In this document: piece by piece, positions 18,822 through 64,000 of the stretch
Layout of the letters: every line of letters starts with the position of its first letter
How positions within the stretch are numbered: the first letter of the stretch is position 1
Virus record (IMG/VR): IMGVR_UViG_3300037153_000606
Length of the DNA: 64,000 nt
Strand: one strand, 5' to 3'
Source: a virus
The notes under the pieces: model-generated
Database searches by the model: none
Told to the model about the DNA's origin: nothing
What the model saw: only the letters and a program-made list of their open reading frames with translations
Program-made: the position numbers and the translations under genes

Positions 18822-19022
18822 ATGCCCAACCGGCACAATGAGTACGGCGAGACCTACGAGCAGCTCCGCGCCCGGGTGAACGACCAGGCCGACCGGATCG
18901 CCAGCCTGCTCGACATCGACCCGGAGCGGGTGGCGACCGTCATCTCGGCTGACTCCTCCGGCGTCGTGCTACTGCCCTCGGTGGCCGATCTGGTCATCGC
19001 CAAGCTTGCTCAGGCCGACTGA
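18822..19022 (+). CDS. hypothetical protein
   Basis: AGGAGCCAC RBS. Confidence 0.55.
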   Translation: MPNRHNEYGETYEQLRARVNDQADRIASLLDIDPERVATVISADSSGVVLLPSVADLVIAKLAQAD

Positions 19023-19059
19023 GCGCCCTACGAACCATTCTTACGAAGGAGCCACACCA

Positions 19060-21147
19060 ATGATCACCAGCACCACCAACCTCGCGGAGATCGTCTCCAC
19101 CCTGCCCGAGGGCGAATCCCGCCTCATGCAGATCAAGCTGGACGCCCTCGCAGCGATCACCGACTCCATGGTCAACCTGTACAAGGACCCCTACCTCGCG
19201 GTGGTCCGGGAGTACTCCACGAACGCCCGCGACGCGATGATCGCGGCGGGCCGGGCCGACGAGCCGATCACCGTCATGCTGCCGTCCTCGCTGGACCCGA
19301 CGCTCACCGTCGCCGACACCGGCATCGGGATGAGCAAGGACCAGGTGCTCGACTTCTACTCGCAGTACGGCGCGAGCGACAAACGCGACTCGAACCAGCA
19401 GGCCGGGACCTACGGCTACGGCTGCAAGTCCGGCTTCGCGATCGCCGGTCAGTTCGTGGTCATTGCCACCCAGGTGGGCATGCAGACCGTCGCGATTTTC
19501 TATCGCGACGAGCACGGTGTGGGCATCGCCCGATTGGTCAGCCACACCGAGACCGACGCGCCGGACGGGGTCACCGTCAAGGTGCCGGTCGAGGACGCGA
19601 CCCGGATGGCGCAGACCGCCGAGCGGTTCTTCTTCTCCTGGCCGGAAGGCACGGTACTGGTGGACGAGGAGTTTCCGCGTTCGTTGCGCGCGGACGCACT
19701 GGTGCTCGGACCGGTCAGCTACCGCAAGCTGGACAAGGGCCTGGAATGGCGCGAGCGCGATGCGCAGAAGGGCATCAAGGTCGTGATGGGGCACACCGCC
19801 TACCCGGTGGACCACCACCTCATCCGGCGCTGGTCCCGCTTCGCCGATGCGGGCACGCTCTACATCGACGCCGAGATCGGCGACATCGATATCATCCCGT
19901 CGCGGGAGTCGGTCCGGGACTCGGAGAAGACCCGTGCGTTCATCGACGCGAAGATGGCCGAGTTCACCACCGCCCTCGCCCTGCACGTGCAGGGGCTGGT
20001 GGCCGAGCAGGACTCGCTCTACCAGGCCGCGCTGACGCTCAAGACCTGGACGCCGATCCTGCACGCGCTGCCCAAGTTCCCTGACTTCTCCTGGCTCGGC
20101 ACGCCGGTGCAGACCTGGGTCGACCTGACCCTCAAGGACCACCCGATGCGGGTGTTCACCCGCCACTCTCCGCGCCGAGCAGCGAAAGCCCGACTGAAGG
20201 AGGACAAGCACGGCCTGCGGGTCGATGCAGGCCAGTCCGAGAAAATTCTGGTAGTCACCGGGGTGAATCTCGCCGGGACCACTCCGGCCAAGCTGTCCGA
20301 CTACGCGATGGAGCAGGGCTTCACTCACGTGCTGCTGGTCGAGAAGGCCTCGGTGCTGCGCACCGGCTGGTTCAAGCCGTCGCTGCCGTTCGTCACTGTG
20401 CTCAGCCTGGTCGACTATGAGGCGGCACGCCGTACCGCCGCCAAGGCACGGCGGCTGGCCAATCCGCCGGAGCCGAAGGACAACACGGTCCGCTACGACG
20501 TGCTCCGCCAGGACGGCCAGGTGTCCTACGGGGTGACTCTGGCCGAGCTGAAGGGGTCCTTGAAGCTGTACTGGACCCGGATGCGTCAGTATCAGGTCAG
20601 CACGCTGCTGACCGAGGTCGGTGCCGCCGAGGACGAGTCGGTCGCCGTGCTCCTGCTCAATGCGCAACAGCGCGAGGAGACGGCGGTCAAGCGGTTCCCG
20701 GGCATCCAGCCGGTCACCGCGTTGGCCGAGGACGTAGCGCGCGTCAAGGTCGCCGCGTACACCCCGGAGCAGCGTGCCGAGATCACGGTGGGGATCGCCC
20801 GCCGGGAGGCCGACACCCATCTGGCCAGAAAGCTCACCGCACACCTGGACAAGATCACCGATCCGATCCTCGCCGACGTGGTGCAGAAGCTCTCAGGCAC
20901 CGAGATGAGCGAGGCGTACCAGAGCTACCGCGAGGTCAACGGTGCAGCGTTCATCAGCAACGCCCCGGCCTGGACCGCCTTCAACGCCGAGATTTACGAG
21001 GACGTGCCGTTCTACGTCAACGCCTTCAACGCCTACCCGCTGCTCAGTGCGCTGAGCCGGTGGAGCGCCAGTGAGGAAGAGATCAAGCACGCCGTGATCT
21101 ACATCAACGCCATCGCCACCGAACGGCTCTCCGCTGAGCTAGCCTGA
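19060..21147 (+). CDS. rIIA: rIIA-like protein (GHKL/HSP90-type ATPase N-terminus)
   Basis: VREYSTNARDA, VADTGIGMS, GTYGYGCKS; directly followed by an rIIB-like gene. Confidence 0.8.
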   Translation: MITSTTNLAEIVSTLPEGESRLMQIKLDALAAITDSMVNLYKDPYLAVVREYSTNARDAMIAAGRADEPITVMLPSSLDPTLTVADTGIGMSKDQVLDFYSQYGASDKRDSNQQAGTYGYGCKSGFAIAGQFVVIATQVGMQTVAIFYRDEHGVGIARLVSHTETDAPDGVTVKVPVEDATRMAQTAERFFFSWPEGTVLVDEEFPRSLRADALVLGPVSYRKLDKGLEWRERDAQKGIKVVMGHTAYPVDHHLIRRWSRFADAGTLYIDAEIGDIDIIPSRESVRDSEKTRAFIDAKMAEFTTALALHVQGLVAEQDSLYQAALTLKTWTPILHALPKFPDFSWLGTPVQTWVDLTLKDHPMRVFTRHSPRRAAKARLKEDKHGLRVDAGQSEKILVVTGVNLAGTTPAKLSDYAMEQGFTHVLLVEKASVLRTGWFKPSLPFVTVLSLVDYEAARRTAAKARRLANPPEPKDNTVRYDVLRQDGQVSYGVTLAELKGSLKLYWTRMRQYQVSTLLTEVGAAEDESVAVLLLNAQQREETAVKRFPGIQPVTALAEDVARVKVAAYTPEQRAEITVGIARREADTHLARKLTAHLDKITDPILADVVQKLSGTEMSEAYQSYREVNGAAFISNAPAWTAFNAEIYEDVPFYVNAFNAYPLLSALSRWSASEEEIKHAVIYINAIATERLSAELA

Positions 21148-29168: not shown

Positions 29169-29216
29169 CATAAACCGAGTTGTCCCATCCTGCATTCTGT
29201 GATTCGCTGTAGCGCT

Positions 29217-29288
29217 GTCGCGGTGTGAAGGGCCCCGGTACTTCTTCTGGAAAAGAATCCACCCGGTGCTCATATCTGGTATCGCGGC
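29217..29288 (+). ncRNA. Y-RNA-like element 3
   Basis: GTCGCGGTGTGAAGG..GGTACTTC..GGTATCGCGGC terminal stem, immediately upstream of Ro60. Confidence 0.55.
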
Positions 29289-29308
29289 TTTACGTACTGG
29301 AGGACCCC

Positions 29309-30919
29309 ATGAGCAAGCTGGCCAAGACCAGCGCCGCCGTCACCGCAGGCGGTATCGCGGCGCTGCGTACCACCTCTACCCCGGACATCACCACCTACGA
29401 GGGCGCGCCCGGCTACTCCCGGGACGCCAAGACCGAGCTGTTCACCCTCGCGGTGGCCAACTTCGTGTCCGAGCAGACCTCCTACGAGTCGGCCCAGGAC
29501 CGCGACACCCGGTTCCGCGAGCTGATTGCACGGGTCACCGTCGAGGACCCGGAGTGGGTCGCCGACTTCCTGTCCTGGCTACGGCAGTCGGCCAACATGC
29601 GCTCGGCGGCCATCGTCGGCGCGGTCGAGTACGGGCGCGCCGTGCAGCCGCCGTACCCGATCGCCAAGCGCAAGCCGGGCACGCTGCAGGTCACCCTGAC
29701 CCCGCGCGCAGTGCTCAACTCGGTCATTTCCCGCGCCGACGAGCCCGGTGAGGCGCTGGGCTACTGGCTGGGCCGGTACGGCCGCCCGCTGCCCAAGTGG
29801 CTCAAGAAGTCGTTGGGCGACTCCGCGCTGCGGCTGTACACGCCGTTCAACTCGTTCAAGTACGACGGCCAGAGCCAGCGGGTGCGTTTCGCCGACGTGA
29901 TCGAGTTCAGCCAGATCGAGGGCGACAACCCGGTCTGGAAGTGGTTGCTCGACCGCCGTCACGGCCACGCCGAAGGTGATTACGGCATCGAGATGCTGCG
30001 CGCCCGCCAGGACCTGGAGGCACTGCCGGTGCCTGAGCGGCTGGCGCTGATCACCAGCACCGCAGTGACCGGGAGGCTGCGTGCGGCCGGGATGACCTGG
30101 GAGTCGGTGTCCGGCTGGTTGCAGGGCCCGATGGACGCCGCCGTCTGGGAGGCGCTGGTCCCGCTGATGGGCTACATGGCGTTGCTGCGCAACCTGCGCA
30201 ACTTCGACGAGGCGGGCGTGTCCGACGAGGTGGCCCAGAAGGTGTTGGAGCGGCTGACCGATCCGGAGCAGGTGGCCACGTCCCGGCAGCTGCCGTTCCG
30301 GTTCTACTCGGCCTACCAGGCCGCGCCGAGCGACCGGTGGAAGCACGGGCTGGGCAAGGCCCTGGATCTGTCGCTGCATAACGTGCCGAACCTGGACGGC
30401 CGCACCCTGGTGCTCATCGACGTATCCGGTTCGATGTCCTACTCGCCGTTGACGGCCCGTTCCTCGGTCTACCCGTGGGCCCAGGCCGCACTGTTCGGGC
30501 TGGCACTCGCGCGCTCGCAGGCCAAGGCGGCCGACGTGGTCGCGTTCGACACCTCGGTGCGCAGCTTCAAGCTGAACAAGGGTGCGAACACGCTGGCCGA
30601 GCTGGCGCGGTTCCGGGGGCTGGTCACCGGCGGCGGAACCTACACCGCGCAGGCGGTCCGGCAGACCTTCGACCCGAACCGGCACGACCGGGTCGTGGTG
30701 CTCTCCGACCAGCAGGCGCACTACGACGGGGTCGGCGTGTTCGACTCGGTGTCACACCACGTGCCGTGCTACACGTTCGACGTGGTCGGCTACCACGCCG
30801 CGCACGCGCCGACGTCGAGCACCCGGCATCTGGTCGCGGGTTTGACCGACAGTGCGTTCCAGATGATGAAGTCGCTGGAGAGCGCGGCCACCGGTCGGTG
30901 GCCGTGGCAGACTGAATGA
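29309..30919 (+). CDS. rsr: Ro60/TROVE-domain RNA-binding protein with C-terminal vWA
   Basis: TTYEG, TWE..SGW, MGYMALLRNLRN, SRQLPFRFYSAY, vWA DVSGSM and GGGT. Confidence 0.92.
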   Translation: MSKLAKTSAAVTAGGIAALRTTSTPDITTYEGAPGYSRDAKTELFTLAVANFVSEQTSYESAQDRDTRFRELIARVTVEDPEWVADFLSWLRQSANMRSAAIVGAVEYGRAVQPPYPIAKRKPGTLQVTLTPRAVLNSVISRADEPGEALGYWLGRYGRPLPKWLKKSLGDSALRLYTPFNSFKYDGQSQRVRFADVIEFSQIEGDNPVWKWLLDRRHGHAEGDYGIEMLRARQDLEALPVPERLALITSTAVTGRLRAAGMTWESVSGWLQGPMDAAVWEALVPLMGYMALLRNLRNFDEAGVSDEVAQKVLERLTDPEQVATSRQLPFRFYSAYQAAPSDRWKHGLGKALDLSLHNVPNLDGRTLVLIDVSGSMSYSPLTARSSVYPWAQAALFGLALARSQAKAADVVAFDTSVRSFKLNKGANTLAELARFRGLVTGGGTYTAQAVRQTFDPNRHDRVVVLSDQQAHYDGVGVFDSVSHHVPCYTFDVVGYHAAHAPTSSTRHLVAGLTDSAFQMMKSLESAATGRWPWQTE

Positions 30920-47224: not shown

Positions 47225-47535
47225 CCTCCTCGGCCACCGTCACCGCGTTGCTCGCCGACTACGACCTCGGCGAGTTCGCCCGCGCCTCCGAGCATCCGTG
47301 CCAGGCGTCCCGGTTCCACTCACCGCGCCCGTTGTTGACCCGCCATTACGACTTCGGCACCCATTACGTCTCGTACTGGTTGTGCGGCACCTGCGCGGGC
47401 AACATCCAGATGTTCCTGTTGGTACACGAGAACGAGGGCGAGCTGCCCTGGTCCACGCTGCGCGAGTTCGGCAACGAAGTACGCCGTATCGGCAACACCA
47501 TTATCCTGCGCCGCCAGCAGGCCAGCCGTGGCTAG
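47221..47535 (+). CDS. hypothetical protein
   Basis: overlaps neighbours; Cys/His motif. Confidence 0.55.
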   Translation: MTSSATVTALLADYDLGEFARASEHPCQASRFHSPRPLLTRHYDFGTHYVSYWLCGTCAGNIQMFLLVHENEGELPWSTLREFGNEVRRIGNTIILRRQQASRG

Positions 47536-50323
47536 TTTCGTCGTCACCGACAACCGGGGCCGCCGGGTGCCGTTGCCCAACGGCACGGCAGGCCCGCCAA
47601 ACGGGTTCTCGCGGATCTCCACCCGGCGGGTCACCGAGGCCGACCAGCAGGGTTTCTCCTCGCGCGGGTTGCCCTTCGGCACGCCGGACGTCAACGCCGC
47701 CGTGACGCACGCCCGGGCGCAGAAGCTGACCCACGCCTCACGGATGCGCCGCACCGGGGCGTACGGCGGCGGCACCGCGTCGATGCAGTTGGCCACCTCC
47801 CGGCCGCGCGACCCGATGTGGTACTGGAAGCAGAACAACATCCCCTTCGACTTCACCGAGCCGGAGGAGCTGGCCAAGATCCGGGAGTTCTGCACCACGC
47901 CGGACACCCCGGTCACCATGGCCGACAACTCCAGCAAGCCGATCGGCACCGTGGCGGTCGGCGAATCGGTGTACGGGTGGACCTACCGGTTGCACGTCAA
48001 CGGCGGTTTGGAACGCAACTGGGTCGCCTCGAAGGTGATCGCGGTCGGGGTGAAGCAGGCCCCGGTGGTCACCGTGACGCTGGCCAGCGGGGCCACGGTC
48101 ACCTGTACCGCCGACCACCGGTGGGCGAACCCGAACTTCACCAAGTTGCAGCGCACCGAGCGGATCGGGCCGTGGGTGCAGGCCGACTCGGCCACCGAGT
48201 ACCAGAGCGCGCAGGTCGGCACCGCGTTGTTGGCCGCGTCCAACTGCCGGGTCGAGCACAACGCGCGTGGGTACGGCTACCCGGCCGCCGACACGTTCGA
48301 GGACAAGGTGATCTCGGTCGAGCCGGTGCTCGACGAGGACGGCGTGTTGGTCTACACCGACGTGGTCTCGCTGCAGACGCTGACCGGCAACTACATCGCG
48401 GGCGGGTACTGCAGCAAGAACTGCCGCCTGCTCTACGTGACGCACCCGATCGTGAGTGCCTGCATCGACGTCTACTCCAAGCTGCCTATGCAGGGGATGG
48501 CATTCACTTGTAAGGACCCGCAGCTGGTCGACTTCTACACCGACCTGTTCTTCGACCAACTGAATTACGAGGACTTCCTGCTCGACCTGGGCACCGAGTA
48601 CTGGCTCTCCGGGGAGAGCTGGGGCCTGGGCGGTTGGAACGACACGCTGGGCGTGTGGGAGTCCGACGCGCTGATCAACCCCGACGACGTCGAGGTGGAG
48701 AACTCGCTGTTCCAGCCCGAGCCGCGCTACCTGATGCGGTTGCCCGAGTCGCTGCGCAAGATCCTCACCACCCGCACCCCGCACTGGCAGTACACCCAGC
48801 TGGTCACCAAGTGGCCGGAGCTGGCCAACTACGCGTCCGAGGACGCGCTGATGCCGGTCTCGAACTACATCCTCAAGCAGCTGCGGTTCAAGGCGGATCG
48901 GTTCTCCAACCGGGGCATCCCGATTTTGATGCGCGGGTTCCGCACCCTGATCCAGGAGGAGATGCTCAACTCCGCGCTGGATTCCATCGCGGACCGGCTC
49001 TACACCCCGCTGATCCTGACCAAGCTGGGCGCGACCGCGCAGGACCTGGGCACTAACGTGCCGTGGATCCCTACCCAGGACGAGATGGAGGACTTCAACG
49101 CGGTGCTGGACGCCGCGCTGGCCGCCGACTTCCGCGCCTTGACCTACCACTGGGCCGTCGACATGCAGCCGGTGTTCGGCCGGGAGAACGTGCCGGACCT
49201 GTCCAACGACTTCGACCGGATCGTGGAACGCATCCTGATGGTCTTCGGGCTGAGCCAGACCATGCTCACCGGAGCCGAGGCGGGCGAGACGTACGCCGCC
49301 GACGCACTGAACCGCGACGTGGTCACCCAGCTGCTCTCGCACTACCAGAAGATGATCTCGCGCTACGTGCACGACCGGGCCGCGATCGTCGCCGAGGCGC
49401 AGGAGCACTACGACTACGAGGTGCGCCAGGGCCGCCGGTACCTGGTCACCGAGGAGATCTACGAGGTGGACGAGGAGACCGGCGAGGAGCGCATCGTCGA
49501 GCAGCCCAAGCTGTTGGTGCCCGACCTCGAATTCAAGACGCTCAACATCTCCGACGAGGAGGACGAGCGGCAGTTCGTCGAGACGCTGGCCGCAGCGGGC
49601 GTGCCGGTGCCCTACCGAGCCCGGCTGACCACCACCGGCATCGACTTCGACGAGGCGATCGAGGAGCGCTCCCAGGAGGACGTGGCGCTCGCGGTGGCCG
49701 AGCAGGAGACCCGCAAGAAGACATTCCAGGCGTTGCAGCGGGCCGGTCTGCCCATCGCCGCCGACCTGGCCCAGGACTTCTCCCCGAAGGCGATCCAGCC
49801 CGGCAACGAGCCCGCGCTGGGCATGGACGGGCAGGACGCGCTGCTCAACCCGTTGGGTCTCGCCCCCACCGACCTGCCCGCGCTCGCGCCGACCCAGGAC
49901 GACCTGGACCAGGACACCGGCATCGAGGACACCAATGCGCCGCCGTCCGACCAGGGCGACGGGTACGGGCCCGGCGGTGAGGGTGACTACCCGGGCCGCC
50001 CGGAGGAGTCCGACGAGGAGCGTGACGGCATGCCGACCTCCAACCAGCGCGCGGCCAGCCTGGCATCCGGTTCTCCGGACACCAAACCGCCGATCACCAA
50101 GATCTCCGGCTACCAGATCGGGCAGCGCTTCGGGATCCGCCAGGCGGTTGCCGAGCACTACGTCGCGCCGGACAACTCCGAGGAGGAGAACGCCCGCGAC
50201 TTCCGGCCCACCGGCCGGTTCGGCGCGCCCCGGGTGCTCGGCATGCGCCAGTACCTGAACCTGGGCGGCGTGCCGACCCGGGTGGCCAAGCGGCCCCGTG
50301 GCGAGGAGGACGCAGATGGCTAA
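47528..50323 (+). CDS. portal protein, intein-containing
   Basis: HPIVSACIDVYSK, EYWLSGE, LINPDDVEV and GIPILMR pattern of large-actinophage portals; acidic tail. Confidence 0.72.
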   Translation: MASFVVTDNRGRRVPLPNGTAGPPNGFSRISTRRVTEADQQGFSSRGLPFGTPDVNAAVTHARAQKLTHASRMRRTGAYGGGTASMQLATSRPRDPMWYWKQNNIPFDFTEPEELAKIREFCTTPDTPVTMADNSSKPIGTVAVGESVYGWTYRLHVNGGLERNWVASKVIAVGVKQAPVVTVTLASGATVTCTADHRWANPNFTKLQRTERIGPWVQADSATEYQSAQVGTALLAASNCRVEHNARGYGYPAADTFEDKVISVEPVLDEDGVLVYTDVVSLQTLTGNYIAGGYCSKNCRLLYVTHPIVSACIDVYSKLPMQGMAFTCKDPQLVDFYTDLFFDQLNYEDFLLDLGTEYWLSGESWGLGGWNDTLGVWESDALINPDDVEVENSLFQPEPRYLMRLPESLRKILTTRTPHWQYTQLVTKWPELANYASEDALMPVSNYILKQLRFKADRFSNRGIPILMRGFRTLIQEEMLNSALDSIADRLYTPLILTKLGATAQDLGTNVPWIPTQDEMEDFNAVLDAALAADFRALTYHWAVDMQPVFGRENVPDLSNDFDRIVERILMVFGLSQTMLTGAEAGETYAADALNRDVVTQLLSHYQKMISRYVHDRAAIVAEAQEHYDYEVRQGRRYLVTEEIYEVDEETGEERIVEQPKLLVPDLEFKTLNISDEEDERQFVETLAAAGVPVPYRARLTTTGIDFDEAIEERSQEDVALAVAEQETRKKTFQALQRAGLPIAADLAQDFSPKAIQPGNEPALGMDGQDALLNPLGLAPTDLPALAPTQDDLDQDTGIEDTNAPPSDQGDGYGPGGEGDYPGRPEESDEERDGMPTSNQRAASLASGSPDTKPPITKISGYQIGQRFGIRQAVAEHYVAPDNSEEENARDFRPTGRFGAPRVLGMRQYLNLGGVPTRVAKRPRGEEDADG
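47891..48421 (+). mobile_element. mini-intein (177 aa, no homing endonuclease)
   Basis: block A CTTPDTPVTMAD, block B TCTADHRW, block F/G VVSLQTLTGNYIAGGYCSKN followed by Cys+1. Confidence 0.88.
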
Positions 50324-59775: not shown

Positions 59776-61097
59776 TGGTCGTTTACACGGTCTTCAACCA
59801 GGCCAGTGTCGGTATCACGTCCAGCGCCGGGGATACCTCCGGCTACACCATGGCGATGACCTTCAAGGTCATCCAGGCCGCCGCGCTCACCGGTATCTGG
59901 TTCTTCTCGCCGCCGGGTGCGGCGCACCTGCCGGTCACCTGCGGGGTGATGCGCGACTCGGACCAGGCCACCGTCGCGGTGAACAGCGCCCCGTCCTGGT
60001 CCGGCGCGGCAGGCTCCGGCTGGGTGAAATGCAGTTTCGACGGCTCGGTCACGCTGTCCCCGGCGCAGAGCTACAAGGCGTGCATCGTCGCCCATTCCGG
60101 GTTCGACACCTACGGCGCGTCGGCGTTCTACTGGTCCGGTGCCGGGGCGGGCGCGAACGGGATCGTCAACGGGCCGCTGTACGCACCGGGCGCGGCGTAT
60201 GCCAGCCCCGGCCAGGACTCGTTCGTCGGGCAGTCGACCGACACGCTGAGCTTCCCGACCGGCTCGTTCCACGACGGCAACTACGGCATCGACGTCGAGA
60301 TCAGTGCCACCGTCGTGCCGTCCACGACGACACTGCTGGCCGCGTACTCCTTCGACGCCTCCAACGGTGCCGACGACTCCGGCAACGGGCACACCCTGAC
60401 CGACACGACCGGCGGGCACGTCAGCTTCGTCACCGGTAAGGACGGCACCGGCAAGGCGATGCATGGTGATGGTGCCGGTGGGTTGGGTGCGGTGTCGTTC
60501 GGGCAGGCTGACTCGACCTCCTGGCTGAATTCGTCGGTCGGTGACCAGATCACGATCATGGCCTGGGCGAGCGTCAGTCCCGACGAGCACCCGGTCATCT
60601 CCTGCGGCAATACGGCGGACTGGGTCGACAACCTCGCATTGTGGATCATCGGCGGCAACATGTACGTGCTGGTGCCTGACTCCACTGCGTCACAGGCCAC
60701 CCACGGAAGCTTCACCGCGAACACCTGGACCCACTTCGCCGTGGTCTACAACTCGGTGACCGGGGTGGTGCTGCTCTACATCAACGCCATCCTCGCGGCG
60801 GACACCGTGATCTCCGGCGTACTGAACTTCCCCAGCGCGAAATTCACCGTCGGCACCACCGCCGTCTACACCAGCGACAGTGTGGTCAACGGTTCGGTCG
60901 ACGATGTCCGGGTCTACCACGGTGCCTTGACTGCGGCCCAGATCGCGACCTGCATGAACACCTCGGTCGGTACCAAGGCCGACCCGCTGGTGACGGTGGA
61001 TCTCAAGCGCGCCACCGGTTCGGGATGGGCAGACACCGGGATGCAACTGGCCGGGTCGAGCGGCTGGGCGTCGGTGAAGGCACCCAAGCCGCTCTGA
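59775..61097 (+). CDS. fibre/receptor-binding protein, DUF4082-like plus LamG domains
   Basis: MTFKV..TGIWFF..NYGIDV; WTHFAVVYN..LLYIN..VDDVRVY. Confidence 0.75.
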   Translation: MVVYTVFNQASVGITSSAGDTSGYTMAMTFKVIQAAALTGIWFFSPPGAAHLPVTCGVMRDSDQATVAVNSAPSWSGAAGSGWVKCSFDGSVTLSPAQSYKACIVAHSGFDTYGASAFYWSGAGAGANGIVNGPLYAPGAAYASPGQDSFVGQSTDTLSFPTGSFHDGNYGIDVEISATVVPSTTTLLAAYSFDASNGADDSGNGHTLTDTTGGHVSFVTGKDGTGKAMHGDGAGGLGAVSFGQADSTSWLNSSVGDQITIMAWASVSPDEHPVISCGNTADWVDNLALWIIGGNMYVLVPDSTASQATHGSFTANTWTHFAVVYNSVTGVVLLYINAILAADTVISGVLNFPSAKFTVGTTAVYTSDSVVNGSVDDVRVYHGALTAAQIATCMNTSVGTKADPLVTVDLKRATGSGWADTGMQLAGSSGWASVKAPKPL

Positions 61098-61098
61098 C

Positions 61099-61236
61099 TC
61101 ACGAGTGGATGCGGATCTTCTTCGGCAACGGGTGTTTCTTGTCCTCGTCGGGGAGGTATTTCTCGATCAGCCTGGCGAGGATGATGAAGAAGAAACTCGA
61201 ACCGGTCATGACGATCGAGGTGAGGGCGTCACTCAT
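61099..61236 (-). CDS. 45-aa single-TM peptide, type I toxin-like shape
   Basis: MSDALTSIVMTGSSFFFIILARLIEKYLPDEDKK..; GGAG RBS inside an inverted repeat. Confidence 0.45.
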   Translation of the reverse strand: MSDALTSIVMTGSSFFFIILARLIEKYLPDEDKKHPLPKKIRIHS

Positions 61237-61516
61237 TGCACTTGCTCCACAGCATTTGGGGGATTCCACGGAACCCGGCAGTGCACATGGAGTCCAGGTT
61301 GATCCGGGCAGGGCTGCAGCATATGTCGTCCCAGCCGCTCGATTGAACAAAGATTTTACAAGTGGAGCAAGATCCTCTAAAGACAGCCCGGGACGGCAGT
61401 CCTCTAGACCAATTCACAGGCGTCTGCGGCCTGGTTGGTCGATCAACGAAACCGCAAGTGTGACCTCCGCCACAATGAGATCACTGCGGCAACGGGCCCG
61501 GATTCGTCGAACCGTT

Positions 61517-61522
61517 TAGAAT
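61517..61522 (+). promoter_or_regulatory. -10 box TAGAAT upstream of the pentamer array
   Basis: matches TANNNT, 12 nt before the first GGC. Confidence 0.5.
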
Positions 61523-61534
61523 GATGCCGCCCAT

Positions 61535-62086
61535 GGCACGGCTTGGCCGGGCATGCCTTGGCGCGGTTTGGTTCGGCAGTCAGGGCGCGGCCTGGCCCGG
61601 CGCGGCTGGTCAAGGCTTGGCCTGGCATGGCAGGCGCGGCAACGGCTAGGCAGGGCTTGGCCGGGTTTGGTCAGGCTTGGCATGGCAGGCAAGGCGGGGC
61701 CCGGTTAGGTACGGCGAGTTAGGGCGGGGCAGGGCACGGCAGTCGCGGCAAGGCTAGTTAGGGTTCGGCCGGGCTTGGCCGGGTTTGTCAGGGCAGTCGT
61801 GGTTCGGCCCGGTTCGGCTAGTCGGGGCCTGGTTGGGCACGGCAGGCATGGTACGGCTTGGCGAGGCATGGCAACGCAAGGCGAGGCGCGGCAGTCGGGG
61901 TTTGGCTTGTCGCGGCCAGGCACGGTCCGTCCCGGCTCGGTAGTCGTGGTGCGGCTGGGTCCGGCAGGGCTAGGTGCGGCGCGGTGCGGCAGCCGTGGTT
62001 GGGCATGGTTCGGCAAGTCCAGGCTAGGCAGGTCGCGGCAGGCAAGGGCAGGGTCTGGCGGGTTAGGGCGCGGTTGGGCGTGGCAG
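61535..62086 (+). repeat. GGY-NN pentamer array organised in about 11 units mostly of 49 or 54 nt; putative guide-like ncRNA array
   Basis: 5-nt periodic GG(C/T)NN with GG(C/T)AG delimiters at 61575, 61629, 61684, 61738, 61792, 61841, 61890, 61939, 61988, 62037 and 62082. Confidence 0.85.
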
Positions 62087-62087
62087 G

Positions 62088-62118
62088 GCCCCGGTTCTTC
62101 ACTAAGTGGAACCGGGGC
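62088..62118 (+). terminator. hairpin closing the pentamer array
   Basis: GCCCCGGTTC..GAACCGGGGC perfect 10-bp stem. Confidence 0.65.
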
Positions 62119-62525
62119 TCGTGTCATCATGTGCCGGTGATGCACGAGCCCTGCCCGTCCTGCGGACACGCGATCATCGACCACCTTCCGGGCGGGTGTA
62201 GCAGATGGGACTCGGTGTGGGAACCATTCCTGAAGTACTACCGAAGGGTGTGGTGCAGGTGCCGACAGAATCTCGCTGTTACCCCACCGGCATCGCCCCG
62301 CAGTCCGGAGATGTACTCGGCATCTACTGCGACAAGTGTGATCACACCAACGTGATCCACCGGCGCGAGGACGGCCAGTGCGCCGCCTGCCGCACCGAGG
62401 CGATGACCGACGAGTTCATCGCCGACGCGGCCAGGGAACTGCGGGATGCCTGGAACGCCCTGTTGGCCAGCGCGGAGAAGCGCCAGGGCAATGTCCTGAA
62501 CTGAGGCACGCGCCCGAAGTAGGGG

Positions 62526-64000
62526 ATGGCTTCGGGAGGTCGCGTGCTGCGCCACGAAACGCGGGGATGGCAGAAGCACTCTGCCACCGACCCGGCCGAC
62601 TACTCCGACTTCAAGGTCGGCGACCGGGTGATGACCTGTGACGGGTTCGCGGGTCAGGTCGTCGCGGTGGCCGACGGCCTGTACCAACAGACCGAGGCGT
62701 ACACCGTAAGGCTCGACAACGGGATGGGCGGCGGCGATTACCAGGAGGGCCAGCTCTGGAAGGCCCCGGCCCGCTCGGCTGCGCGCGAGAATGGCGAGCC
62801 TGATCTGGAGCCGGTGGAGGCCGGGGAACACGTCTCGGCCGCGTACTACTACCCTGAGCTGGGCACCGTCTTGGACGACCGGCCGCCGATCGAACGGATA
62901 CGGGTGTTCGCCGCGTTCGTCGCCGCCGACACCACCGACGAGGACGACCCGCAACCGGAGGACGAAGAACCGGTCGAGGATGTCGACGAGGCCGAACAGG
63001 GTGCGGAGGGTGCCGACCAACCCGACACCTGCTCGTACTGCGGCAACGACTCCTTCAAGGACTTCCAGGACACCGGGCGCGGTACCCGGGCCCGGTGCGC
63101 GCAGTGCGGCGGCACCATGGTCAAGCCGCACGACGGCGTGCAGTGGTCACCGGAGTTCCCCAACTCGCCGGAGAACGCCGCCTCCCGCCAGTCCGATTTC
63201 CGCTCGGTGATCAACGACCCGCGCGCGGTGCACTCCTCGTTGGGGGTGGCCACCGGCGCGTTGTCTGCCCCGTGTGAGACTCCAGGTGCGCAGTACTCCA
63301 CTTCGGTTGGACCCGACTCGGTAGGAGTGGAGGTGCACCTGCCGTTTGAGCTGCCGGTGGAGACCAAGACCGAAGCGCAGGACTTGGAAGCCCGTATGCA
63401 CAACGGTATGGAGGCCATCTTGGCTCCCTACTTCGTAGGCCACACCGGTGCGCTCACGGTCGGCGCACTGAACGTTGCCGCCTCCGCCGAGGCCGGGTAC
63501 CCGATCTTCACCGGCCTCGCCGTCCCGGACCTGCCCGAACCTCACTTCGAGTTCATCGCCACCTGGGCCGATGTGCGGGCCAAGGCGGTGCGGATCCGCA
63601 AGGAGGGCGGGGTTCGGATCCTGGCTGCGAATGGCACCGGCGCGGTCGGTGAGGTGGACGGCGACAACTCGATCTATGAGACCGAGTTCAACTACGTGCC
63701 CGGCACCAAGCGGGTGGCCTACTGGCACTGCGGTTGCCCGTGGAGCGCCTGGGCCAACAAGGAGCGTTTCGATGGTTTCAAGAAGTTCCAGAACCGACCG
63801 TGTTCGCACAATCTCGCACTTCGGTTCGAGGTAAACGCACGCGGCATGTTCGGCCGTGAGGTCACTCCCGACGAGGACCGGCTCCCTGGCCAGTACCAGC
63901 GTTCCCCGGTGCAGGTGCAGTATCAACGGCCGGACGAGAAGTACCCGGAGGGTCGCGACCTGCGGCGGCGGACCGTGCCGCCGGGCAATGTGCGTACCGA
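62526..64000 (+). CDS. large multi-module protein with SWIM-type zinc finger (truncated by window end)
   Basis: open from ATG 62526 to the end of the window; FKVGDRVMT, CSYC..CAQC, WHCGCPW..PCSH. Confidence 0.65.
   Translation, partial: MASGGRVLRHETRGWQKHSATDPADYSDFKVGDRVMTCDGFAGQVVAVADGLYQQTEAYTVRLDNGMGGGDYQEGQLWKAPARSAARENGEPDLEPVEAGEHVSAAYYYPELGTVLDDRPPIERIRVFAAFVAADTTDEDDPQPEDEEPVEDVDEAEQGAEGADQPDTCSYCGNDSFKDFQDTGRGTRARCAQCGGTMVKPHDGVQWSPEFPNSPENAASRQSDFRSVINDPRAVHSSLGVATGALSAPCETPGAQYSTSVGPDSVGVEVHLPFELPVETKTEAQDLEARMHNGMEAILAPYFVGHTGALTVGALNVAASAEAGYPIFTGLAVPDLPEPHFEFIATWADVRAKAVRIRKEGGVRILAANGTGAVGEVDGDNSIYETEFNYVPGTKRVAYWHCGCPWSAWANKERFDGFKKFQNRPCSHNLALRFEVNARGMFGREVTPDEDRLPGQYQRSPVQVQYQRPDEKYPEGRDLRRRTVPPGNVRT

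Follow-up and report, generated by a model that had tools for sequence, protein, structure and literature searches.

The DNA analysed here, referred to as the window, was a 64,000-nt stretch of a viral genome (IMG/VR record IMGVR_UViG_3300037153_000606). An array of GGY-NN pentamers was located at 61535-62085 on the + strand, and it comprised 11 head-to-tail units (U1-U11) with 101 NN dinucleotides. Each unit was composed of 8-10 GGY-NN pentamers followed by a terminal 4-nt GGCA, which was replaced once by GGTA. The array and its flanking elements were as follows:

61517-61522, + strand: TAGAAT, a -10-like hexamer 12 nt ahead of the point where clean GGY repeats begin; no more than a candidate promoter element
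61535-61578, + strand: U1, 8 pentamers and GGCA, with 3 degenerate pentamers ahead of it, from 61520
61579-61632, + strand: U2, 10 pentamers and GGCA
61633-61687, + strand: U3, 10 pentamers (an extra base in one) and GGCA; paralogue of U5
61688-61741, + strand: U4, 10 pentamers and GGCA
61742-61795, + strand: U5, 10 pentamers and GGCA
61796-61844, + strand: U6, 9 pentamers and GGCA
61845-61893, + strand: U7, 9 pentamers and GGCA; example unit of the earlier note
61894-61942, + strand: U8, 9 pentamers and GGTA
61943-61991, + strand: U9, 9 pentamers and GGCA
61992-62040, + strand: U10, 9 pentamers and GGCA
62041-62085, + strand: U11, 8 pentamers (an extra base in one) and GGCA
62086-62120, + strand: GC-rich terminal hairpin, 12 pairs with an 11-nt loop, directly 3' of the last GGCA; no U-tract

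The pentamers, the step coordinates and the spacings given in the earlier note all held on re-measurement. The 4-nt steps were found at 61575, 61629, 61684, 61738, 61792, 61841, 61890, 61939, 61988, 62037 and 62082, with spacings of 54, 55, 54, 54, 49, 49, 49, 49, 49 and 45. The unit lengths ranged from 44 to 55 nt and were mostly 49 or 54, which corresponds to 5n-1, and this rule held at nine of the 11 junction spacings. Successive GGY triplets within the array were exactly 5 nt apart in 70 of 99 cases. Furthermore, the autocorrelation of G was 0.48 at lag 5 and 0.49 at lag 10, and about zero in the neighbouring gene. GGC or GGT accounted for 94 of the 112 triplets, the remainder (16% non-GGY) being GTC, GTT, GCC or CGC, and all 16 dinucleotides were present at the NN positions. 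One-nucleotide insertions were found in two units, U3 and U11. The array was the sole long stretch with at least six of ten GGY in phase on either strand of the 64-kb window. One other run passed this threshold, a 50-nt segment at 59978-60027 (+) with six in-phase GGY/GCT pentamers at 59997-60026, which sits within a tail-fibre-like ORF (DUF4082 and Laminin_G_3). This run may have arisen by chance in Gly-rich coding sequence, or it may be a short solo guide embedded there.

The claim that each unit has a different NN string was borne out in general, the median best NN identity being 39%, but it failed for U3 and U5. The NN strings of these two units had 17 of 20 letters in common, which exceeded all 200 shuffles. 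If they were read in the orientation of U8 (see below), each of the three differences would alter the residue encoded by the target. U3 and U5 look like two alleles of one guide, as far as their NN strings can tell.

At the 5' side of the array, the hexamer proposed earlier as a -10 box is indeed present at 61517-61522, but a sigma-70 consensus scan called no + strand promoter there. Related arrays carried a different AT-rich element, TATAAACTT, in the equivalent relative place. This element was conserved at the end of the portal gene, spanning its stop codon, in three related phages (L143:2660-2700, L199:12075-12100 and L219:12935-12960), and the array began 30-50 nt after it in all three. 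It is a candidate shared array promoter, unlike the TAGAAT of the window. The array is separated from the tail-fibre-like gene by a gene-free spacer of 417 nt (61100-61516) with a GC content of 0.56, compared with 0.67 for the window. The only sigma-70-like promoter call in this spacer was on the minus strand (61381-61353), facing away from the array. At the 3' side, the closing hairpin described in the earlier note was verified, with 10 perfect pairs between 62088-62097 and 62109-62118, and the 62070-62135 segment folded at -36 kcal/mol (z = -4.0). Hairpins of equal strength followed the last junction in two other high-GC arrays, L136 and L143. The terminal hairpin was missed by the terminator scan, which demands a T-run; it is a candidate terminator or 3' protective structure. 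Further 3', a large ORF at 62526-63998 (+), which runs off the window, encodes several CxxC pairs, and one region of it matched phrog_30974 and phrog_2940 (PHROGs, unknown function).

Two other genes of the window may be mentioned. A 568-aa protein with TROVE (Ro60) and vWA domains is encoded at 29213-30919 (+), and a 755-aa protein with a GHKL (HATPase_c_3) ATPase domain at 18880-21147 (+). With regard to the TROVE protein, Rfam detected no Y RNA or other RNA family in the window. In addition, no RNA family was found by Rfam in or around the array, and a tRNA search found none in the window.

The possibility that the locus is not an RNA guide array was considered, the alternatives being coding sequence of low complexity, a microsatellite arisen by slippage or a structural DNA element rich in G. 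On both strands, the array is crossed by several ORFs (90-165 aa), and the GG tracts occurring every 5 nt might form two-tetrad G-quadruplexes. However, GC was flat across the codon phases of the array (0.72/0.72/0.71), compared with a GC3 of 0.84-0.88 in the flanking genes, which means that the array lacks a coding signal, and the ORFs running through it matched no Pfam family. A coding reading was rejected on these two results, which agree with the earlier remark that a period of 5 fits coding poorly. Moreover, the NN strings differ from each other and no guide is common to the window array and the related arrays, so no protein is conserved. A non-guide origin would also leave the match of U8 to capV, presented below, unexplained, and we consider it highly improbable. 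The array did not have the composition of a CRISPR array either: 23-50-nt direct repeats with unique spacers were absent, and Tandem Repeats Finder returned period 5/10 fragments only.

The earlier note had pointed to a resemblance to GGY/NN RNAs of phage VIPR systems with a RAMP-like partner. Such RNAs have been published, and their grammar and junctions agree with those of the window array. VIPR was described in 2026 preprints, in which the minimal RAMP protein Vipr polymerises on GGY/NN vrRNAs (bioRxiv 10.64898/2026.04.26.720920). According to the 2026 preprints, double-stranded DNA is read by the NN pairs two bases at a time, the third being skipped, and binding silences transcription. By definition, a vrRNA guide consists of some 9-16 GGY/NN (YNNGG) pentamers in tandem, in which the triplet is conserved and the dinucleotide hypervariable (bioRxiv 10.64898/2026.04.26.720920). 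The window array fits this grammar, with its 94 GGY triplets out of 112, all 16 NN and 8-10 repeats per unit. Among the published forms are staggered, tail-less arrays in which each vrRNA ends at the start of the next one (bioRxiv 10.64898/2026.04.26.720920, fig. S18), although these lacked sRNA-seq confirmation in the preprint. In a staggered array, adjacent vrRNAs have 1 nt in common and the period is 5n-1; the window spacings were 49 (five times), 54 (three times), 55 and 45. No unit carried the structured 3' tail of about 60 nt that type II guides have, the sole structured element being the hairpin after U11.

The link with Vipr genes was obtained from related arrays. When IMG/VR was searched with a pattern that described a single 49-nt unit and its GGCAGTC junction, 20 phage contigs matched, most of which carried arrays of the same grammar as the window array. 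In 13 of the 20 contigs, the array adjoined two conserved genes, and a profile of the first of them (alignment A1) matched PDB 36pp, 'SUSP1 Vipr protein', with an E-value of 1.4e-10. The unit-length modes of these Vipr-adjacent arrays were 54, 49, 59 and 44, and the two top modes, 54 and 49, were the same as in the window. The window array type can be assigned to Vipr genes because 13 of the 20 junction-matched loci carry a Vipr-like gene and the unit lengths agree. Judged on its sequence, 61535-62085 is a genuine staggered VIPR vrRNA array. This kind of array is already known, since publications of 2026 describe the class, its code and the staggered layout alike.

The idea that the NN pairs spell a gapped target was examined for the guides, and it was confirmed for U8 when its NN pairs were read with one skipped base. 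When every third base of the codons for D-G-G-V-W-A-N-N-P is left out, the reverse complement of the remainder is the NN string of U8. As nine NN pairs at codon positions 1-2, its reverse complement spells (D/E)GGV(C/W)A(K/N)(K/N)P. DGGVWANNP is the catalytic-Asp motif of the CBASS patatin-like phospholipase (CapV). In a collection of one genome per species, the gapped 18-base pattern had at least 120 exact matches (18/18), compared with about 17 expected by chance (arithmetic for 18 fixed bases and 1.2e12 positions). All of the matches listed lay in an open frame reading (D/E)GGV(W/C)A(N/K)(N/K)P. A GxSxG motif was present 122-164 residues upstream in 103 of the matches listed, which is the spacing of the patatin Ser-Asp dyad. 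Among the matches listed, 100 of the 101 complete ORFs matched PADLOC CBASS phospholipase-effector models (E<1e-10), and at least 40 of the 53 next-downstream ORFs were CD-NTase cyclases. For instance, the U8-matched loci of Herbiconiux and Kocuria were capV-cyclase-E1/E2 operons with capV in first place. The vrRNA U8 is complementary to the coding strand of capV. Because all nine residues have a unique two-base codon prefix, U8 would recognise the peptide independently of codon usage. The match spans the first to the last pentamer between two junctions, and the junctions are therefore the boundaries of the guide.

An exact target with the 1-nt skip was found for one guide of the 11 only, U8. 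The gapped target search proposed in the earlier note succeeded for U8 but gave no target for U2, U3, U4, U5 and U9. U2 had no exact 1-nt-skip match in IMG/VR and remained at control level in five CBASS-carrying actinobacterial genomes, in which the matches of U9 were likewise at control level. For U4, neither IMG/VR nor the JGI metagenome contigs contained an exact match, and the matches in the same five actinobacterial genomes were at control level. A merged U3/U5 pattern had no exact match in IMG/VR; with at most two mismatches in 401 Actinomycetota genomes it gave seven matches, compared with six for the reversed control, and these appeared noise-like on reading. For U1, U6, U7, U10 and U11, the check covered the window together with related phage and CBASS loci, and no target was found there. 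When all guides were compared with 1.3 Mb of related phage loci, none exceeded the shuffles. A 17/20 match of U3 in the phage locus L221 was rejected, as it lies in a junk ORF. In the 120 U8-matched CBASS loci, the guides had no match beyond that of U8, and the guides of 12 other arrays had none in CBASS loci. A PDB short-peptide search, with the U8 motif as positive control, returned no match, the method being insensitive. Within the 64-kb window, the best matches of all 11 guides were at the level of shuffled guides at any skip length. This result was in agreement with the published absence of self-targeting by VIPR guides (bioRxiv 10.64898/2026.04.26.720920).

These results also bear on the question of whether the array is a relic, decaying or silent, with transcription or loading lost. 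The 16% of triplets off GGY, the 1-nt insertion in two units, the ten guides for which no target was identified and the lack of a called promoter would fit such decay. However, published arrays are equally degenerate internally, the 5n-1 rule is kept at nine of the 11 spacings and the terminal hairpin is intact. Moreover, all 18 letters of U8 still match a conserved motif. A relic is thus very unlikely.

Published VIPR loci carry vipr, usually with vap, at the same locus as the array. HMMs built from the Vipr and partner clusters that accompany related arrays detected no homologue of either in the 64-kb window, which covers 61.5 kb upstream and 1.9 kb downstream of the array (best E-values of 0.17 and 0.89). 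The absence of a RAMP-like gene from the window, as stated in the earlier note, was thus upheld with the array-linked Vipr profile. Because the window encodes none, the gene for Vipr must lie in another part of the genome.

The relatives of the phage were examined in this respect. Its portal protein (window 47528-50323) placed it among uncultivated phages that form a large family with genomes of about 150-166 kb, and the nearest cultured relatives were 155-kb mycobacteriophages with 40% portal identity. Neither a 1.6-kb nor a 24-kb piece of the window gave a Megablast match in the phage collection. Most relatives had no array at the portal side. In two of them, G407 and G408, an array directly followed the portal gene as a second site besides a vipr-adjacent array. 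Both phages also encode, 16-20 kb from the portal-side array, a protein strongly homologous to Vipr (E-values of 5e-62 and 5e-63), and a further array adjoins its gene. In two further loci, L137 and L143, an array of about 1.4 kb was located between the portal gene and a homologue of the window gene 62526-63998, which indicates that the downstream neighbour of the array is conserved. In the comparison of arrays among related phages that the earlier note had suggested, the array site was kept in G407, G408, L137 and L143, and no guide was common to the window array and the related arrays. The predicted guide content turns over completely while the array site persists. In addition, two complete relatives with terminal repeats, L232 (G405) and L233 (G406), of 154 and 160 kb, showed only a weak match to the Vipr profile (E about 1e-6) in ORFs of 208 and 222 aa, which were adjoined by GGY-periodic stretches without GGCAG junctions. 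From these features, G405 and G406, members of the same family, may carry a VIPR type that has diverged further.

The proposal that the array is an orphan acting in trans was thus only partly sustained. The window contains no vipr, but the split layout of G407 and G408 favours a distal vipr of the phage's own. A true solo array would load its units onto the Vipr of another phage, either redirecting the VIPR of a rival as a decoy or borrowing its Vipr. The absence of vipr and vap from the window would be expected of such an array, solo vrRNAs are, according to published work, common in phages, and the published caller designates an array as solo when the nearest vipr is more than 20 kb away. 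Like the window array, which has no vipr within 61.5 kb upstream or 1.9 kb downstream, the solo vrRNAs of satellites and VIPR-null phages have no vipr nearby, and they act in trans (bioRxiv 10.64898/2026.10.15.759431). They differ in that the elements carrying them have no vipr at all and that it is a rival's Vipr they act on, and they are single type II guides with tails (bioRxiv 10.64898/2026.10.15.759431). Moreover, their targets are REP elements, vipr genes and satellites (bioRxiv 10.64898/2026.10.15.759431), whereas U8 of the window points to a CBASS motif, which is unexpected for a decoy or an anti-VIPR guide. G407 and G408, in turn, combine a portal-side array with a vipr of their own. 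A true solo array is therefore unlikely, and a distal second array is likelier because two relatives have the split layout. Very probably, the window array represents the second, distal vrRNA array of the phage's own VIPR system, and its carrier is a roughly 150-kb high-GC actinobacterial phage distantly related to the 155-kb cluster-C-like mycobacteriophages. On this reading, large soil actinophages would distribute their guides among several sites, and callers that are limited to the vipr neighbourhood, or that label all arrays beyond 20 kb as solo, would misread such phages.

For a distal array of this kind, a mechanism can be proposed from the published one. The array would be transcribed rightward as one RNA, and Vipr protomers would assemble into a polymer along the GGY triplets, which are spaced by 5 nt, exposing each NN pair. 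The 4-nt GGCA at the end of a unit would break the register, which would give one filament per unit of 8-10 NN pairs. The RNA would be cut at or near GGCA|G into guides of 45-55 nt without the long 3' tail of type II. Each guide would then bind double-stranded DNA following NN-x-NN-x and silence transcription there. Since the skipped base is the wobble position of the codon, such a guide would read a peptide motif regardless of codon usage. U8 is complementary to the capV motif and capV is first in its operon in the actinobacterial hits, so the likely use of U8 would be to block expression of the CBASS operon during infection. The operon blocked would be borne by the host or by a mobile element.

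The published natural targets of VIPR are satellites, prophages and rival VIPR systems, and viruses for the host-borne types. A phage guide against a host immune effector would thus be a new use of VIPR, and a literature search returned no paper connecting vrRNAs with CBASS. From the match of U8, it is quite possible, but short of probable, that a lytic actinobacterial phage uses U8-guided Vipr on capV codons to shut down the type II CBASS of its host or of resident mobile elements. If this is true, VIPR extends from conflicts among mobile elements to acting directly against bacterial immunity. As a rule, CBASS proteins are already in the cell when infection begins, and silencing of capV may for this reason come too late to disarm the system. 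The actual target of U8 may instead be the CBASS carried by rival prophages or mobile elements, which would match the inter-element conflicts of VIPR.

Compared with known systems, the window array has the same guide code as the type II VIPR of the Escherichia phage SUSP1 (Vipr, vap1 and four vrRNAs; PDB 36pp), with 9-16 repeats per guide there and 8-10 here, and the genes linked to arrays of its type belong to the same Vipr family. However, the SUSP1 guides are separate RNAs of about 100 nt, each ending at the 3' side in a conserved, structured tail of about 60 nt, whereas no tail lies between the window units. Furthermore, the SUSP1 guides target a satellite phage, and the one decoded guide of the window targets a bacterial CBASS effector motif. 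With the published staggered VIPR arrays, the window array has in common the GGY/NN grammar, the lack of spacers and tails, and a phage carrier; the 1-nt-skip reading of these systems works for U8. The staggered 1-nt overlap corresponds in the window array to the 4-nt GGCA step followed by G, and processing is presumed both here and in the published arrays. The difference lies in location, as the published staggered arrays are beside vipr and the window array sits in the virion-gene module.

CRISPR arrays, including those borne by phages, are similar to the mechanism proposed here in having tandem programmable guides, one precursor transcript and a protein partner with the RAMP fold. They have direct repeats of 23-50 nt and contiguous spacers, whereas in the window array conserved and variable positions alternate every 3 + 2 nt. 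Unlike CRISPR, no cas genes accompany the window array, and the published outcome of VIPR is binding rather than cleavage.

Phages also possess the anti-CBASS factors Acb1, Acb2 and Vs.4, which degrade or sponge the cyclic nucleotide signal. If the reading of U8 is right, these factors and the array would have the same aim, the disabling of CBASS. Acb1, Acb2 and Vs.4 act on the signal, whereas U8 would act by RNA-guided transcriptional silencing of the effector gene or operon. As a VIPR array, the locus is ordinary, and its noteworthy part is the exact, codon-usage-proof match of U8 to the catalytic motif of CapV.
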